Source: Centroscyllium fabricii
Lineage: Eukaryota
DNA: 64,000 bases
NCBI GenBank assembly: GCA_051313645.2
Contig: JBNRSN020000031.1
Coordinates: 6,634,001-6,698,000, forward strand
Direction: 5' to 3'
The position numbers and the translations under genes are program-made. Under the pieces are notes generated by a model. The model ran no database searches, was not told where the DNA came from, and saw only the letters and a program-made list of their open reading frames with translations. Every line of letters starts with the position of its first letter. Positions within the stretch are counted from its first letter, which is position 1. This document shows, one piece after another, positions 1 through 63,771 of the stretch.

Positions 1-479
1 ACAGTCGTGAGTAGTACTTCTGAGAAAAGGGCTTGGGGAACAAGGTGTAAGGGTGCTAAAGTGGATGCCTTGCCATTGTAAATGTCCAGTTGAAATGTGT
101 TCTGTAAGGGTGCTAAAGTGAGTGCCTTGCCATTGTAAAGTGCTGATTGAAGTGTGTTCTTGGGAGTGTCTGTGAATTGAATGAATGCTGATTGATTTGT
201 TATATGACATTAACGCTGCTTTCTGTTTTTGTATCTAGTTGCTAGTTGCTTAACACTGTTTGTATTTAAACTCTATCTCCCATCCCTGTTATTAAAGTTT
301 GTAAATAGAAATCTTGTCTCAGATTCATCTCTCTTAAGGTAAAAGGGTTACATTTGGGTGGAGGTCACAGAGTTCTACACGTGGGGTACGTTAAGAACCT
401 ACGGGGTAATTGGTATTAACCTACCCCCCCCCATACTCAGAGAAAGAGAAGGGGGGGGCCAATCAGAAATAGGGCCACA
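1..479 (+). repeat. Upstream LTR, 3' portion (truncated by the window edge)
   Basis: 1-430 reads identical to 1625-2054; ends ...GGGCCACA, then TT and the PBS. Confidence 0.88.
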
Positions 480-481
480 TT

Positions 482-499
482 TGGGGGCTCGTCCGGGAT
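482..499 (+). promoter_or_regulatory. Primer-binding site complementary to the tRNA-Pro 3' end
   Basis: TGGGGGCTCGTCCGGGAT is the 18-nt tRNA-Pro PBS known from murine leukemia virus; it lies 2 nt (TT) after the LTR-terminal CA. Confidence 0.95.
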
Positions 500-613
500 A
501 CTGTGACTTCCAGTTTCATACACTAGTGGAGTGAACCCATTGTTGCCGAGAGAGAGATGGACGTGAGCACGGTTACTTTGTGGTGTAGTCATGAGGACAT
601 GACTAAGTTTGGT

Positions 614-623
614 AAGGGGGGAG
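614..623 (+). promoter_or_regulatory. Polypurine tract (plus-strand primer)
   Basis: AAGGGGGGAG directly abuts the TG start of the downstream LTR at 624. Confidence 0.85.
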
Positions 624-882
624 TGTAACCTGGGTCTGAAACCCAGAGTCAGGGAGAATCTCCCTAAAGGGTTAAAAGTCTAGGGATCCAGTGGTCTGAG
701 GTCAGGTGACCTCTTCGGTGCCAGTTTGTCTGGAAGTTCAGATCACATGGGGTGGTTGTCCAGGTGTGAGATTGAACACTGTTTCAGACAGGCTGGGCTG
801 CCATGGAAACCAGCACTCGGCTCCGGCCAGTCTGTGTGATTGCTTTGTGATAGGCTGGCTAAAAGTGGGGTGAGTTACTGGA

Positions 883-906
883 GGGTGGAGCCAGGACAGG
901 ATAAAA
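883..906 (+). promoter_or_regulatory. Putative LTR core promoter (GT/GC box plus TATA-like GATAAAA)
   Basis: GGGTGGAG at 883-890 and GATAAAA at 900-906, about 280 bp into the LTR. Motif-level evidence only. Confidence 0.35.
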
Positions 907-930
907 TGCTGGACACGCCTAGAGATTATT

Positions 931-1063
931 AAGATTGAGCTGGAGAGAAGATTGAGCTGGAGTTAAGATAGAGCGCAGGAGGAAGAGAGAAGATTGAGCT
1001 GGAGAGAAGATTGAGCTGGAGTTAAGATAGAGCGCAGGAGGAAGAGAGAAGATTGAGCAGGAG
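931..1063 (+). repeat. Purine-rich 59-bp tandem repeat (x2 plus partial) inside the LTR, built of AAGATTGAGCTGGAG subunits
   Basis: 931-989 is repeated at 990-1048, with a partial third copy after it. Confidence 0.85.
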
Positions 1064-1386
1064 GTTAGATTGAGAAGATCCGGGAAGAGAGAAGATAAAG
1101 AAGGACATCACGAAAAGAAGCCACGAGGACCGCGCTCGGAAGGAGGGAAAACCAGCAGCACGAGGCACGAAGCCCTGAGACTCTTGGAAGACGCTAAAGA
1201 CATTAGCTGACCAGGGGAAGTCAAGAAGGAAGTCCCTGTGCACCGGCTGGGAAGAAGGAAGACCATTCGGGCGGATCAGAACCGGTACGTAGTCCGGGAG
1301 GAGCCCAGAAGATTGAGTGAGGGAAGACTCACCATTCTGGCAGATCAGAGCGGTACCTAGTCCGTGGAGCCAGCAATGCGTCGACG

Positions 1387-1531
1387 AGGTCGCAGGAAGC
1401 AGAGGGTGGAGAGCGGTGTTCGACACCCACTGCTGGAAGTTGCTGGAAGCTTTCGTGTAGGTCGCAGGAAGCAGAGGGTGGAGAGCTGTGTTCGACGCCC
1501 ACTGCTGGAAGATTCTGGAAGCCTTTCGTGT
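1387..1531 (+). repeat. 72-bp direct repeat x2 inside the LTR
   Basis: AGGTCGCAGGAAGCAGAGGGTGGAGAGC... starts at 1387 and at 1459 with few mismatches. Confidence 0.9.
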
Positions 1532-1669
1532 GAAAGGACTGAGAGCCAGATCCAAGAGCCGTCGTTGTCTCCCTTGAGATGAGGAGACTGTAGTGTACGG
1601 TCCTCATTGTCAAGCCCTATTCGGACAGTCGTGAGTAGTACTTCTGAGAAAAGGGCTTGGGGAACAAGG

Positions 1670-1783
1670 TGTAAGGGTGCTAAAGTGGATGCCTTGCCAT
1701 TGTAAATGTCCAGTTGAAATGTGTTCTGTAAGGGTGCTAAAGTGAGTGCCTTGCCATTGTAAAGTGCTGATTGAAGTGTGTTC
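1670..1783 (+). repeat. 57-bp direct repeat x2 inside the LTR (same repeat at 46-159 in the upstream LTR)
   Basis: TGTAAGGGTGCTAAAGTG...TGCCTTGCCATTGTAAA...TTGAA.TGTGTTC at 1670 and 1727 (46 and 103). Confidence 0.85.
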
Positions 1784-1914
1784 TTGGGAGTGTCTGTGAA
1801 TTGAATGAATGCTGATTGATTTGTTATATGACATTAACGCTGCTTTCTGTTTTTGTATCTAGTTGCTAGTTGCTTAACACTGTTTGTATTTAAACTCTAT
1901 CTCCCATCCCTGTT

Positions 1915-1920
1915 ATTAAA
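1915..1920 (+). terminator. Putative LTR polyadenylation signal ATTAAA (also 291-296)
   Basis: ATTAAA variant about 180 bp before the LTR end, in a T-rich context where the R/U5 boundary is expected. Confidence 0.5.
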
Positions 1921-4900
1921 GTTTGTAAATAGAAATCTTGTCTCAGATTCATCTCTCTTAAGGTAAAAGGGTTACATTTGGGTGGAGGTCACAGAGTTCT
2001 ACACGTGGGGTACGTTAAGAACCTACGGGGTAATTGGTATTAACCTACCCCCCCATTCTCAGTAAAGGAGAGGGGGGGGGCCAATCGTAAAAAGGGTTAC
2101 ACACGTAATCACATGCTGAGTTATCATTGGCCCACTGGCATCTGTAAGGACTAATATTGTATTCACTTAACCACATGCTGAGTTATCATTGGCCGCAGGC
2201 GTCTGTAAGGACTACCTATTATATTCACGTAATCACATGCTGAGTTATCATTGGCCCACAGGCATCTGTATGGACCACCTATTATATTCACGTAATCACA
2301 TGCTGAGTTATCATTGGCCCACAGGCATCTGTAAGGACTACCTGTTATATTCAAGTAATCACTTGTTGAGTTATCATTGGCCCACAGGCATCTGGAAGGA
2401 CTTCCTATTATATTCACGTAATCACATGCTGAATTATCATTGGACCAAAGGCATCTGTAAGGGATACCTATTATATTCACGTAATCACATGCTGAGTTAT
2501 CGTTGGCCCACTGTCATCTGTAAGGACTACTATTGTATTCACTTAACCACATGCTGAGTTATCATTGGCCGCAGGCATCTGTAAGGACTACCCATTATAT
2601 TCACGTAATCACATGCTGAGTTATCATTGGCCCACAGGCATCTGTAAGGACTACCTATTATATTCACGTAATCACATGCTGAGTTATCATTGGCCCACAG
2701 GCATCTGTAAGGACTACCTATTATATTCACGTAATCACATGCTGAATAATCATTGGCCCACAGTCATCTGTAAGGACTGCCTATTATATTCAAGTAATCA
2801 CATGCTGAGTTATCATTGGCCCACAGGCATCTGTAAGGACTACCTATTATATTCACGTAATCACATGCTGAGATATCATTGGCCCACAGGCATCTGTAAG
2901 GGCTACCTATTATATTCACGTAATCACATGCTAAGTTATCATTGGCCCACAGGCATCTGTAAGGACTACCTATTATATTCACGTAATCACATGCTGAATT
3001 ATCATTGGCCCACAGGCATCTGTAAGGACTACCTATTATATTCACGTAATCACATGCTGAGTTATCATTGGCCCACAGGCATCTGTAAGGACTACCTATT
3101 ATATTCACGTAATCATATGCTCAGTTATCATTGGCCCACAGGCATCTGGAAGGACTACCTATTATATTCAGGTAATCTCATGCTGAATTATCATTGGACC
3201 AAAGGCAACTGTAAGGACTACTATTGTATTCACGTAATCTCATGCTGTGTTATCATTGGCCCACAGGTATCTCTAAGGACTACCTATTATATTTACATAA
3301 TCACATGCTGAGTTAACATTGGCCTACAGGCATCTGGAAGGTCTACCTATTATATTCACGTAATCACATGCTGAGTTATCATTGGCCCACAGACATCTGG
3401 ATGGACTACCTATTATATTCACGTAATCACATGCTGAATTAACATTGGACCAAAGGCATCTGTAAGGACTACCTATTATATTCACGTAATCACATGTTGA
3501 GTTATCATTGGCCCACAGGAATCTGTAAGGAGTACCTATTATATTCACGTAATCACAAGCTGAATTATCATTGCCCACAGGCATCTGTAAGGACAACCTA
3601 TTATATTCACGTAATCACATGCTGAGTTATCATTGGCCCACTGGCATCTGTAAGGACTAATATTGTATTCACTTAACCACATGCTGAGTTATCATTGGCC
3701 GCAGGCGTCTGTAAGGACTACCTATTATATTCACGTAATCACATGCTGAGTTATCATTGGCCCACAGGCATCTGTATGGACCACCTATTATATTCACGTA
3801 ATCACATGCTGAGTTATCATTGGCCCACAGGCATCTGTAAGGACTACCTGTTATATTCAAGTAATCACTTGTTGAGTTATCATTGGCCCACAGGCATCTG
3901 GAAGGACTTCCTATTATATTCACGTAATCACATGCTGAATTATCATTGGACCAAAGGCATCTGTAAGGAATACCTATTATATTCACGTAATCACATGCTG
4001 AGTTATCATTGGCCCACTGTCATCTGTAAGGACTACTATTGTATTCACTTAACCACATGCTGAGTTATCATTGGCCGCAGGCATCTGTAAGGACTACCCA
4101 TTATATTCACGTAATCACATGCTGAGTTATCACTGGCCCACAGTCATCTGTAAGGACTACTATTGTATTCACGTAATCAAATGCTGAGTTATCATTGGCC
4201 CACAGGCATCTGTAAGGACGTCCTATTATATTCACGTAATCACATGCTGAGTTATCATTGGCTCACAGGCATCTGTAAGGACTACCTGTTATATTCATGT
4301 AATCACATGCTGAGTTATCATTGGCCCACAGGCATTTGTAAGGACTACGTATTATATTCACGTATTCACATGTTGAGTTATTATTGTCCCACAGTCATTT
4401 GTAAGGACTACTTATTATATTCACGTAATCACATGCTGAGTTATCATTGGCCCACATGCATTTGTAAGGACTACCTATTATATTCACGTAATCACATGCT
4501 GAGATATCATTGGCCCACAGGCATCTGTAAGGACTATCTATTATATTCACGTAATCACATGCTAAGTTATCATTGGCCCACAGGCGTCTGTAAGGACTGC
4601 ATTTTATATTCACGTAATCACATGCTGTATTATCATTGGCCCACAGGCATGTGTAATGACTACCAATTATATTTACGTAATCACATGCTGAGATATCATT
4701 GGCCCGCAGGCATCTCTAAGGACTACCTATTATATTCCCGTAATATATGCAGAGTTATCATTGGCCCACAGGCACCTGTAAGGAATAACTATTATATTCA
4801 CCTAATCAAATGCTGAGTTATCATTGGCCCACAGGTATCTGTAAGGACAACCTATTATATTCAGGTAATCACATGCTGAATAATCATTGGCCTACAGGCA

Positions 4901-49919: not shown

Positions 49920-51125
49920 AGAACATAGAACATAGAACATACAGCACTGTACAGGCTCTTGGGCCCTCAATGTAGTGCCGCCCTTATTCCGTCTCTGATT
50001 TTTCCTGTCCCCCCTACTGTTCCTTCCCTTCCATGTACCTGTCTATCATCCTTTTAAAAGCACCCAGACTGTCCGCATCCACTATTTCAGATGGTAGCCT
50101 ATTCCATTCCCCGACCACTCTTTGTGTGAAGAACTTGCCCCTGCCATCCCGTCTGAATCTTCCTCCTTGAATCTTGTGCTCGTGTCCTCTTGTTGTCGTT
50201 CTTCCCGCCCGGGGAAACAGTCTTTGCACATTTACTCTGTCGATCCCCTTCATCATTTTATACATCTCTATCAGGTCCCCCCTCTTCCTTCTTCGTTCCA
50301 GGGAGAAGAGTCCCAGTTCCCTTAACCGTTCCTCGTATGACTTTCCCCCCATTCCCGGCAGCATCCTGGTGAATCTCCTCTGCACTCTTTCCAGTGCCTC
50401 CACATCCCTCCTGTAGTACGGTGCCCAGAACTGCTCACAGTACTCCACGTGTGGTCTCACCAGTGACCTGTACAACTGCAGCATGACCTCCCGGTTCTTA
50501 AACTCTATTCCCCTGTTGATGAAGGCCAATACACCATAGGCCTTTTTTACTGCTTTGTCCACTTGGGTGGCAGCCTTCAGTGATCTGTGTACATATAGTC
50601 CCAGATCCCTTTGCTCCTCTGCTTCACTCAGGATCCTGCCGTTGACCCTATATTCCCTCTTCCTATTTGCCCTGCCGAAGTGCATCACCTCGCATTTCCC
50701 CTTGTTGAACTCCATTTGCCATTCTTCAGCCCAGCTCTGCATCCTGTCTATATCCCTCTGAATCGTTCTACTCCCTTCCTCCTCATCCACTACTCCCCCA
50801 ATCTTTGTGTCATCCGCAAATTTGCTGACCCACCCCTCAGCCCCCTCCTCCAAGTCATTGATGAAGATTACAAACAGTAGTGGCCCCAACACCGACCCCT
50901 GTGGTACCCCGCTGGTGACCGGTCTCCAGCTCGAGTATTGGCCTTCTACCACTACCCTCTGCTTCCTCTGAGCCAGCCAGTTCTCAATCCATCCCACCAC
51001 TTTGCTGCTTACCCCGCAACTCCTTACTTTCTTCATGAGCCGACCGTGCGGGACCTTGTCGAACGCCTTGCTGAAGTCCATATATATGACATCAACCGCC
51101 TTTCCCTCGTCCACACTCTTGGTCT
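49920..51125 (-). mobile_element. 5'-truncated CR1-clade LINE (ORF2 RT C-terminus, 3' UTR, (GTTCTAT)n tail)
   Basis: RT motifs DFSKAFDKVPH, GVPQGSVLGPLLF and FADD; CR1-type C-terminus (LERVQRRFTRM, LFSLERRR.RGDLIE). The minus-strand 3' end reads GGGCCCAAGAGCCTGTACAGTGCTGTAT(GTTCTAT)3. The element splits a monomer at GAGTTAT|CATCGG. Confidence 0.96.
50014..51125 (-). pseudogene. CR1 ORF2 fragment (about 370 codons, reverse transcriptase; no endonuclease or RT N-terminus)
   Basis: Uninterrupted frame from TKSVDEGKAVDVIYMDFSKAFD to the stop at 50014-50016; part of track ORF 50014..51456. Confidence 0.92.
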
Positions 51126-62500: not shown

Positions 62501-63599
62501 ACAGGCATCTGTAAGGACTACCTATTATATCCACGTAATCACATGCTGAGTTATCATTGGCCCACTGGCATCTGTAAGGACCACCTAATATATTCACGTA
62601 ATCACATGCTGAGTTATCATTGGCCCACAGGCATCTGTATGGACCACCTATTATATTCACGTAATCACATGCTGAGTTATCATTGGCCCACAGTCATCTG
62701 TAAGGACTACCTATTATATTCACGTAATCACATGCTGAGCTTTCATTGGCCCACAGTCATCTGGAAGGACTACCTATTATATTCACGTAATCACATGCTG
62801 AATTATCATTGGACCAAAGGCATCTGTAAGGACTACTATTGTATTCACGTAATCACATGCTGAGATATAATTGGCCCATAGGCATCTGTAAGGACTACCT
62901 ATTATATTTACGTAAACACATGCTGAGTTATCATTGGCCCACAGGCTTCTGGAAGGACTACCTATTATATTTACGTAATCACATGCTGAGTTATCATTGG
63001 CCCACAGGCATCTGGAAGGACTACCTATTATATTCACGTAATCACATGCTGAATTATAATTGGACCAAAGGCATCTGTAAGGAATACCTATTATATTCAC
63101 GTAATCACATGTTGAGTTATCATTTGCCCACAGGCATCTGTACGGACTACCTATTATATTCACGTAATCACATGCTGAATTATCATTGCCCACAGGTATC
63201 TGTAAGGACTACCTATTATATTCACGTAATCACATGCTGAGTTATCATTGGCCCACAGGCATCTGTAAGGACTACTATTATATTCACGTAATCACATGCT
63301 TAGTTATCATTGGCCCACAGGCATCTGTAAGGACGACTATTGTATTCACGTAATCAAATGCTGAGTTATCATTGGCCACAGGTATCTGTATGGTCTACTA
63401 TTTTATTCACGTAATCACATGCTGAGTTATCATTGGCCCGCAGGCATCTGTAAGGACTACCTATTCTAATCACGTAATCACATGCTGAGTTATCATTGGC
63501 CCACAGGCATCTGTAAGGACTACCTATTATTTTCACGTAATCACATGCTGAATTATCATTGGACCACAGGCATTTGTAAGGACGACCTATTATATTCAC

Positions 63600-63771
63600 A
63601 AAGTCACACAACACCAGGTTTAAAGTCCAACGTTTTATTTTAAATCACAAGCCTTCGGAGCTTTTGCCCCTTCGTCAGGCAAAGAGAAACTGTTGGACTT
63701 TAAACCTGGTGTTGTGTGACTTTTTGCATTTGTTCACCCCAGTCCAACACCGGCACCTCCGCATTATGGGA
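63600..63771 (+). mobile_element. Penelope-like element remnant (inverted plus direct terminal-repeat fragments and 3' extension) with 11-bp TSD
   Basis: Perfect 32-bp inverted repeat at 63600-63631 / 63692-63723; TSD ATTATATTCAC at 63589-63599 and 63772-63782; hammerhead-like core in the inverted arm. Resembles Penelope-like terminal repeats recalled from shark genomes. Confidence 0.8.
63646..63680 (-). ncRNA. Degenerate minimal hammerhead ribozyme motif (Penelope type)
   Basis: The minus strand reads CTGACGA-A-GGGGC-AAAA-GCTCC-GAAG-GCTT-GTG: CUGAnGA core, 5-bp stem II, GAAG in place of GAAA, and no stem I 5' arm. Confidence 0.6.

Follow-up and report, generated by a model that had tools for sequence, protein, structure and literature searches.

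A hollow short form of a PNMA-type Ty3/Gypsy retrotransposon family with long LTRs and frequent primer-binding-site insertions in Centroscyllium fabricii

The window analyzed here is a 64,000-nucleotide stretch of the Centroscyllium fabricii genome (contig JBNRSN020000031.1) whose first 2101 positions belong to a 3102-bp element composed of a 5′ LTR, a primer-binding site (PBS), a 144-bp interior, a polypurine tract and a 3′ LTR, all on the plus strand. Extension to the left places the start of the 5′ LTR 1001 bp before the window, where an earlier note made from the window alone had predicted about 1000 bp, and gives this LTR a length of 1480 bp; its 3′ third occupies 1 to 479. The interior (480 to 623) comprises a TT spacer between the LTR end and the PBS (480 to 481), an 18-nt tRNA-Pro PBS in its plain, minority form (482 to 499), a leader running into the first ten gag codons (500 to 587, with the ATG at 557) and a terminal segment (586 to 623) that includes the polypurine tract (614 to 623). 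The 3′ LTR follows at 624 to 2101 (1478 bp). Our analysis reproduced the PBS, polypurine tract, interior and 3′ LTR that the earlier note had drawn. The 3′ LTR runs from TGTAACC to GGTTACA as given there; the 5′ LTR ends in GGGCCACA and not in GGTTACA. Between them the two LTRs show 12 differences over 1478 aligned sites; 10 of these and a 2-bp indel fall within the final ~55 bp. The PBS is the reverse complement of the 3′ end plus CCA of a host tRNA-Pro(TGG) called by ARAGORN.

The insertion lies within an array of a 63-bp satellite, 978 units of which fill 2102 to 63599 and which extends at least 29 kb to the left of the element and at least 10 kb to the right of the window. Since a CACG target-site duplication (TSD) is found at both ends of the element (right copy at 2102 to 2105), the window copy is a single LTR-interior-LTR insertion and not the unit of a tandem array that had also been considered; tandem forms do occur elsewhere in the family. 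L181, a candidate tandem, resolved into two distinct insertions that each have a TSD. For L195, heteroduplex segregation inside a tandem was rejected, as this locus has four LTRs and a 6-bp junction.

Within the 3′ LTR, a TATA-like motif (899 to 906; near LTR position 306 in the majority of copies) marks the predicted end of U3, tandem modules of 17/59, 72 and 57 bp occupy the predicted R region (931 to 1784), and an ATTAAA polyadenylation-like signal is predicted at 1915 to 1920; among the listed copies it lies 187 to 203 bp upstream of where the LTR ends. Transcription is predicted to start near LTR position 335 and polyadenylation to fall near position -165. Other family copies carry a 211-bp module in the R region. 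An internal look-alike of the LTR end and PBS start (1965 to 1985) is retained in most copies. A coding LTR was considered and rejected; among frames overlapping 1 to 2101, the longest minus-strand ones reach 193 and 158 aa and the longest plus-strand one 82 aa. An Rfam search of the element returned only a chance-level match (E 0.28), and ARAGORN found no tRNA gene in L011.

The earlier note had called for a coding partner with the same LTR ends and PBS, and we found it as siblings with a 5.2-kb interior, hereafter long copies. The interior of the window copy, which represents the short form, is made up of 108 bases from the start and 38 from the end of the interior of these siblings; the first 300 bp of its LTR are 99.3 % identical to three long copies and the last 300 bp up to 96 %. 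Two frames fill the sibling interior; of 36 long interiors, 32 have both of them open. Gag carries PNMA_N, PNMA capsid and zinc-knuckle (CCHC) domains. Pol shows the order RVT_1, RT_RNaseH, Integrase_H2C2, rve, with the protease evident only as a DTGS motif, and PF14893/PF20846 are present on many of its homologues. The Pol score is 353 bits with yeast Ty3 Gag-Pol and no higher than 106 bits with retroviral reverse transcriptases (RTs). With a PR-RT-RH-IN Pol whose RT is nearest Ty3, a PNMA-type Gag and no env, the sibling sequences identify the family as a PNMA-type Ty3/Gypsy (Metaviridae) LTR retrotransposon.

This assignment overturns the kinship with MLV-like class I ERVs proposed earlier, under which the element would be a non-autonomous ERV mobilized by a gamma- or epsilon-like retrovirus. 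The 18-nt tRNA-Pro PBS, the CA-TT spacing and the 4-bp TSD do fit class I ERVs, and the genome holds an ERV, L119, with MLVIN_C, RNase_H and the same PBS. However, such a PBS and TSD are not diagnostic, as Gypsy-dependent animal Helenus elements also generate 4-bp TSDs (PMC10886601). The sibling Pol lacks the retroviral RNase_H and MLVIN_C matches that L119 shows as a control, and with them the class I combination of retroviral RT, second RNase H and MLV-type integrase C-terminus. Furthermore, the L119-type ERV shares neither LTR nor leader with the element (no L067/L068 matches), whereas LTR, leader and 3′ end are all common to the element and its Gypsy siblings. On these comparisons a class I ERV origin is refuted, and we give it next to no credence, though an L119-type ERV may cross-package the element.

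The short hollow form is present in roughly 900 young copies. Its deletion-junction pattern has 942 matches genome-wide, the PBS-leader pattern 1353 and the polypurine tract-LTR pattern 1400, against none for reversed-pattern controls; the LTR-start pattern matches at least 3164 times, a lower bound because of the search prefix used. Perfect 4-bp TSDs flank 83 of the 87 short elements having both ends resolved (L181 being scored as a failure), with 49 different TSDs, and 36 of 39 long elements. Median LTR-pair divergence is 0.085 % for short and 0.082 % for long elements. A one-off deletion unique to the locus is thus ruled out, and the earlier expectations of a multicopy family with different TSDs and of recent insertion are borne out. 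So is the description of a minimal non-autonomous element that keeps its cis signals, since LTRs, PBS and polypurine tract are present around an interior without enzyme genes.

The short form differs from the long one by a single junction (586 to 587), where a 2-bp TA microhomology marks the loss of ~5.09 kb of gag-pol. A residual 23-codon frame (557 to 628) fuses the gag start to the pol end across it, and we claim no function for this frame. All 61 short copies in a sample of 100 consecutive PBS sites share the identical junction. Could the short form nevertheless have arisen from full-length copies time and again, by genomic deletion or by splicing, and not be a self-replicating lineage? 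PBS types and LTR-end haplotypes are common to both forms, marker 43C with a TCTT PBS among them, and a tree of the final 330 LTR bases requires 11 short/long changes, at least four of them forced, although trees of recombining elements are imperfect. A GTAAG donor-like motif also stands at the left break. But GT and AG are both retained beside the junction, which is therefore not a GT-AG splice product, and splicing is ruled out from the sequence. Nor would a microhomology of 2 bp give the identical deletion hundreds of times over. The leader markers 100A and 127G, limited like the amplified LTR modules to short copies, span many TSDs yet are combined with every PBS type. We therefore consider repeated origin highly unlikely and favor a single self-replicating short lineage.

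LTRs range from 1146 to 2221 bp across the family. Among loci that were not selected for resemblance to the window (54 short, 33 long), the median LTR is 1497 bp in short copies versus 1236 bp in long copies, and 46 of the 54 short-copy LTRs are longer than every long-copy LTR. The extra length is located between the TATA-like and polyadenylation-like motifs, and the 57-bp module is present at two or more copies in 62 of 89 short LTRs versus 0 of 47 long LTRs. The two LTRs of an element are within 3 bp of each other in length in 77 of 86 short elements. These sequences indicate that amplification of modules within the predicted R region accounts for the extra LTR length of short copies.

The plain PBS of the window copy makes a family-wide feature invisible from the window alone. 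Only 435 of the 1353 family sites are plain, leaving 68 % non-plain genome-wide, and 64 of the 100 consecutive sites carry a 1-2 nt insertion, or bulge, after PBS position 10-12 (35 of 61 short, 29 of 39 long). These frequencies rest on the consecutive sites and the genome-wide pattern counts; the first 34 loci and nine early long loci were left out because they had been chosen by interior identity to the window or by the plain-PBS pattern. Four insertion types occur in the sample and a fifth in L114, all within one 3-nt window, and with every type pairing persists over 10 or more bases from the PBS start, at a duplex-energy cost of 3.8 to 7.7 kcal/mol. Another tRNA-Pro family has no insertion among the 100 sites listed of 112, a comparison weakened by the apparently greater age of that family (broken frames). 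A variant host tRNA matching the bulges was considered and rejected: of 140 host ends resembling tRNA-Pro, the 100 listed carry no insertion.

Plain copies nest within bulged clades. Short 43C copies include 18 plain and 19 bulged, and in the tree two plain long copies are zero-length sisters within the TCTT clade. A six-copy plain-PBS clade of long copies has its own internal branches, hence plain templates do replicate. LTR-pair divergence is no different in plain and in bulged copies (p 0.86 for short, 0.45 for long elements), bearing in mind that family copies are related and that counts and p-values do not represent independent events. In one case a family LTR end runs into 33 nt copied from mature tRNA-Pro, CCA included; this single aberrant end may not reflect the normal path.

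A bolder reading, which we hold possible but less than probable, is that the PBS is inherited retrovirus-style from the tRNA, that bulges of independent origin escape silencing by tRNA-Pro fragments while every round of replication returns some of the progeny to the silenced plain form, and that the hollow passenger, which exchanges ends with its helper and amplifies R-region modules, outcompetes this helper much like a defective interfering RNA. Rewriting of the PBS by the tRNA primer would be expected to leave plain copies nested in bulged clades. It is also possible, if short of probable, that the insertions are neutral, reflecting a few highly expressed source loci that chanced to carry them or an RT slippage hotspot, and that plain/bulged switching occurs via recombination and not tRNA copying. 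Recombination is evident in the family, plain and bulged copies show no difference in age, and Ty3 has been said not to take its PBS from the tRNA, with Ty1 and Ty3 strictly inheriting their own (PMC7472051); under strict inheritance neutral insertions could persist. Neutrality sits less easily with five insertion types in one 3-nt window, several of them defining lineages with internal branches, with plain copies that retain the bulged clade's marker 25 nt downstream, with an RT able to read the primer as the 33-nt copy shows, and with the insertion-free control sites. 

In mouse, ZFP809 represses MLV through the tRNA-Pro PBS. Selection of the bulges against such a DNA-binding repressor, or for better priming or RNA folding, is a further explanation that we regard as unlikely. 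The pairing kept at the PBS start and the energy cost would suit any PBS-reading factor, and zinc-finger binding to PBS motifs is noted as a second layer in the HENMT1 preprint, but the bulges occupy the central guide region, and a MusD reporter was de-repressed by mismatches placed there (10.1101/2025.05.12.650695).

Overall, we are confident that the element belongs to a hollow, young and dispersed internal-deletion family of PNMA-type Ty3/Gypsy, likely mobilized by its 5.2-kb siblings, with bulges that are likely an escape from silencing. In our preferred mechanism, gag-pol would have been lost once via a template switch at the microhomology. The hollow RNA, probably about 2.6 kb given that the long LTR is mostly R, would be transcribed from the 5′ LTR and then packaged, reverse-transcribed and integrated by sibling Gag and Pol. 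Recombination between passenger and helper RNAs would let the short lineage keep acquiring LTR ends and PBS types of long lineages, while R modules were presumably amplified within the short lineage. Plus-strand synthesis by RT would read into the tRNA-Pro primer and so return some PBSs to the plain state. Bulged PBSs would meanwhile keep their high frequency by probably evading a silencer aimed at the PBS, for which 3′ tRNA fragments are the most plausible candidate. As bulged copies exceed 50 % genome-wide, above a strict 50:50 reset, the reset would have to be partial. PBS insertions may in this way help the family dodge small-RNA silencing.

LARDs have long interiors, and the element does not belong with these >4 kb elements of long non-coding interior, as short copies measure only 143 to 146 bp inside. 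TRIMs, including tandem TA-TRIMs, are like it non-coding, with two LTRs round a tiny PBS-polypurine tract interior, and also share TSDs, tandem forms and an LTR size near that of the partner (PMC4717578, PMC6934838). While the element has the full TRIM structure (two LTRs, PBS, polypurine tract, short non-coding interior, TSD), its size and the family LTR range far exceed the TRIM definition of <1 kb (or <1.5 kb) in total and LTRs of 100-250 bp. Among 289 plant TRIM subfamilies a coding partner has been identified in just 11 (PMC4717578, PMC6934838), whereas here it is present and nearly identical. Sugar beet mid-size non-autonomous families of 1.5-4 kb, called common but unnamed, are likewise non-coding with long LTRs and short interiors (PMC13570524); these are plant elements, while here we find a vertebrate-type PNMA Gypsy, a traceable helper and PBS insertions. 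Helenus elements resemble ours in their Gypsy dependence, TSD length and occurrence in fish, but are <1 kb with a tRNA-derived LTR promoter (PMC10886601); the LTR described here has no tRNA or Rfam match, and thus lacks the tRNA- or 5S-derived sequence of Helenus/Cassandra (TRIMp3). RBD-capsid-NC metaviruses related to PNMA genes, such as zebrafish Gypsy-12, match the helper's PNMA_N, PNMA and zinc-knuckle Gag by description, and non-coding derivatives receive no mention in the available text (PMC10516033). Zebrafish BHIKHARI is also a non-autonomous, recently active fish LTR family, but is a Lokiretrovirus relative keeping a gag ORF (PMC12067270), unlike our Gypsy element. In mouse ETn/MusD, as here, the non-coding passenger is more numerous than the helper; the most frequent PBSs carry mismatches to the tRNA, and tolerance of indels and apparent reversions to perfect are seen, a pattern read as escape from 3′ tRNA fragments (PMC7472051). 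ETn/MusD, however, are Retroviridae, and ours is a Gypsy family with 1-2 nt insertions. Among the largely open-access papers that our literature search covered, none came up that describes this family or reports PBS insertions in a Gypsy family.

With the hollow element, the known class of TRIM-like passengers now includes a vertebrate-type Gypsy whose LTRs are giant, and having the helper identified for such a passenger is rare. A tRNA-Pro PBS with a 4-bp TSD is not enough to call an element a class I ERV, and screens for the exact PBS overlook two-thirds of this Gypsy family. The PBS pattern is weightier than the hollow structure: the conflict between priming and silencing has so far been argued from mouse ERVs, and the pattern bears on the strict PBS inheritance attributed to Gypsy elements. 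With ~1350 young, near-identical copies differing by a 1-2 nt bulge, the family offers a natural, locus-resolved test of both ideas.

The retrotransposon copy at the left edge of the window is a single LTR-interior-LTR insertion and not, as the earlier note had allowed, a unit of a tandem array. Its tRNA-Pro primer binding site (PBS, 482-499), PPT (614-623), 144-bp interior (480-623) and 3′ LTR (624-2101) lie exactly where that note had placed them, and the start of the 5′ LTR, predicted about 1000 bp left of the window, was found in the neighbouring sequence at 1001 bp. This 5′ LTR is 1480 bp long, and a CACG duplication flanks the element on both sides, within satellite. The PBS is the exact complement of a host tRNA-Pro(TGG) end plus CCA. 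The two LTRs differ at 12 of 1478 sites; 10 of these and a 2-bp indel fall within the terminal ~55 bp of the 5′ LTR (425-479), and 2 in the first 1420 bp. The upstream part resembles another LTR haplotype of the family. The divergent end could reflect a template switch, conversion or assembly error. It terminates in GGGCCACA, and since the terminal 23-mer has no second close copy in the assembly (one unrelated-looking match has 2 mismatches), the window copy is without visible descendants.

Other features of the locus are recorded here in their own right. A sequence resembling the LTR end and PBS start is present at 1965-1985 and 341-361, set back 125 bp from the true end; of the LTRs examined, only 8 lack it when up to 3 edits are allowed. 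The U5 fold has strong hairpins. The remainder of the window is a 63-bp satellite (2102-63599) with higher-order repeats of 189 bp and about 1506 bp, in an array of at least 100 kb at this locus. Inserted in it is a 5′-truncated LINE (49920-51124, minus strand) that retains an open frame for the RT C-terminus and has a tail of short repeats; from its likeness we take it to be CR1-like. A 163-bp non-satellite insert (63594-63771) has 48-nt inverted arms and is MITE-like or a fold-back.

The proposal of a multicopy, recently inserted family was borne out across the 7.2-Gb genome, in which the window occupies G000:C834:6634001-6698000. The interior query gave 40 scored matches at 99-100 %, out of 1868 candidates, and the deletion-junction 30-mer (up to 2 mismatches), PBS-leader and PPT-LTR junction patterns matched 942, 1353 and 1400 times, with no genome match for the reversed control patterns. 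Both ends could be resolved in 87 short elements (those with the ~144-bp interior). In 83 of them the 4-bp target-site duplication (TSD) is perfect, and 49 different TSDs occur; two others are off by one base, one is not resolved, and the last, L181, is actually two insertions, each with its own TSD. Median LTR-pair divergence in short elements is 0.085 %, 22 pairs lacking any substitution. Long copies, with a 5.2-kb interior, are as young and have TSDs in 36 of 39 cases. Across the family, TSDs show a target preference, beginning with a pyrimidine in 103 of 119 and ending with a purine in 108 of 119. Tandem forms occur, with two or three interiors within one TSD; at L195:1028-7042 the order within one TSD is LTR(1310)-int-LTR(1549)-6 bp-LTR(1549)-int-LTR(1310), where the 6 bp resemble cDNA ends left unprocessed, as though a 2-LTR circle had recombined into another copy's interior. 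Further deletion derivatives were each seen once, with interiors of 2113 (L111), 610 (L112), 4285 (L113), 3711 (L115) and 2965 bp (L194).

Searching for the same LTR end joined to a different interior, we found the coding partner that the earlier note had expected. It has the same LTR and the same initial 108 bp of interior, which here continues to 5.2 kb and holds two frames, one of 474 codons and one of 1224-1271; both are open in 32 of 36 long interiors. The 144-bp interior joins 108 bases from the start of the long one to 38 from its end, with an overlap at TA; it is not a splice product, because both GT and AG are retained at the junction. The kinship suggested earlier, to MLV-like class I ERVs, does not hold. 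Against yeast Ty3 Gag-Pol the long frame scores 353 bits, whereas no retroviral RT gives it more than 106; Pfam places RT, RNase H and integrase in Gypsy order in Pol, and in Gag it finds a zinc knuckle besides PNMA_N and PNMA. The control L119, a true ERV of this genome with the same PBS, has RNase_H and MLVIN_C domains and no LTR sequence in common with the family. Judged by sequence, the partner is a Gypsy element, not an ERV. Its best named database homologues are fish and amphibian Gypsy proteins. At L105:2942-6754, residues 250-700 (RT) share 84 % identity with a salmonid entry, about 80 % with several teleost entries and 78 % with a ray entry, a likeness that makes horizontal transfer possible.

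LTR elements replicate by transcription from U3, packaging, tRNA priming, PPT priming and integration, and family copies would follow this route with tRNA-Pro. One identical junction in all 61 short copies among 100 consecutive PBS sites on contig C1 (the other 39 are longer), with two leader markers found in short copies only, argues for a single deletion having founded the short lineage. All the PBS types and leader markers that are common in the long lineages also occur in short copies, and the LTR-end tree requires 11 short/long changes, at least 4 of them forced; the simplest reading is that co-packaged passenger and helper RNAs recombine.

Short copies have also gained LTR length. Among loci not picked for likeness to the window, median LTR length is 1497 bp in short versus 1236 bp in long copies, the helper LTR itself being about 1.2 kb, and 46 of 54 short LTRs exceed the longest helper LTR of the set. 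In the copies listed, a TATA-like motif near LTR position 306 and ATTAAA 187-203 bp from the LTR end hold steady, which places the gain in the predicted R region. Modules of 57, 72 and 211 bp account for it; more than one copy of the 57-bp module is present in 62 of 89 short LTRs and in none of 47 long ones. For 77 of 86 short elements the two LTRs agree in length to within 3 bp, so reverse transcription passes the gains on. An RNA of about 2.6 kb is predicted, versus a 144-nt interior; relaxed size limits or better packaging could explain the added LTR length.

When loci were sampled in genome order, the plain PBS of the window proved to be the minority type; genome-wide it occurs at 435 of 1353 sites. 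Of the 100 consecutive sites, 64 have 1-2 bases inserted behind PBS position 10-12; these insertions are of four types, seen at 27, 17, 16 and 4 sites, and L114 has a fifth. Among short copies 35 of 61 have one, and among long copies 29 of 39. Copies are kin, so that p-values overstate independence. No insertion was found in the 100 listed of 112 sites of another, older-looking tRNA-Pro family, nor in the 100 listed of 140 host tRNA-Pro-like ends. The bulges cost 3.8-7.7 kcal/mol and leave the priming end paired. One sequencing run of the listed organism A, possibly the assembled sample itself, has a 2-base insertion at the same place.

A tRNA primer may reset a bulged PBS to plain. In a tree of 36 long interiors, PBS excluded, two plain copies are separated by zero branch length from bulged sisters, well inside one bulged clade, and the short lineage marked by leader base 43C has 18 plain and 19 bulged copies. 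At L235:1880-1915 (G000:C711:2688372-2688406) the sequence downstream of a family 3′ LTR reads TT, then 33 nt identical to mature tRNA-Pro, CCA included, before unrelated DNA begins, which points to RT having read through the primer beyond position 58. Window position 500, the base after the PBS and facing tRNA position 58, is A, C or T by lineage, a pattern that misincorporation opposite m1A58 would give. Against a simple reset, bulged sites make up more than 50 % overall, replication has occurred within one plain clade of long copies in the same tree, and plain copies are just as young as bulged ones.

In structure the element is TRIM-like, but it is too large for the class limit of under 1 or 1.5 kb (PMC6934838, PMC13570524); in sugar beet, elements of such intermediate size that combine long LTRs with a short interior are common (PMC13570524). 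Helenus elements, known in fish, are Gypsy-dependent TRIMs with 4-bp TSDs (PMC10886601), whereas no tRNA-derived part was found in the window LTR. Partners are seldom identified, in plants for 11 of 289 TRIM subfamilies (PMC4717578). The PBS pattern parallels that of mouse ETn/MusD/IAP, in which PBSs with mismatches or indels predominate and revert, interpreted as escape from 3′ tRNA fragments; Ty1 and Ty3 are said to inherit the PBS strictly (PMC7472051). Central mismatches de-repressed a MusD reporter (10.1101/2025.05.12.650695). That the bulges serve escape here is a tentative idea, less likely than not. Among the papers searched, none was listed that describes the family or reports PBS insertions in a Gypsy element.

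Taken as a whole, the element is very probably a real, young, multicopy non-autonomous Gypsy derivative, and we are more confident still of its identity and that of its partner. Its architecture is a variant of an already known class; what surprises is that, in a Gypsy family, PBS bulges recur and appear to be reset with the tRNA as template.
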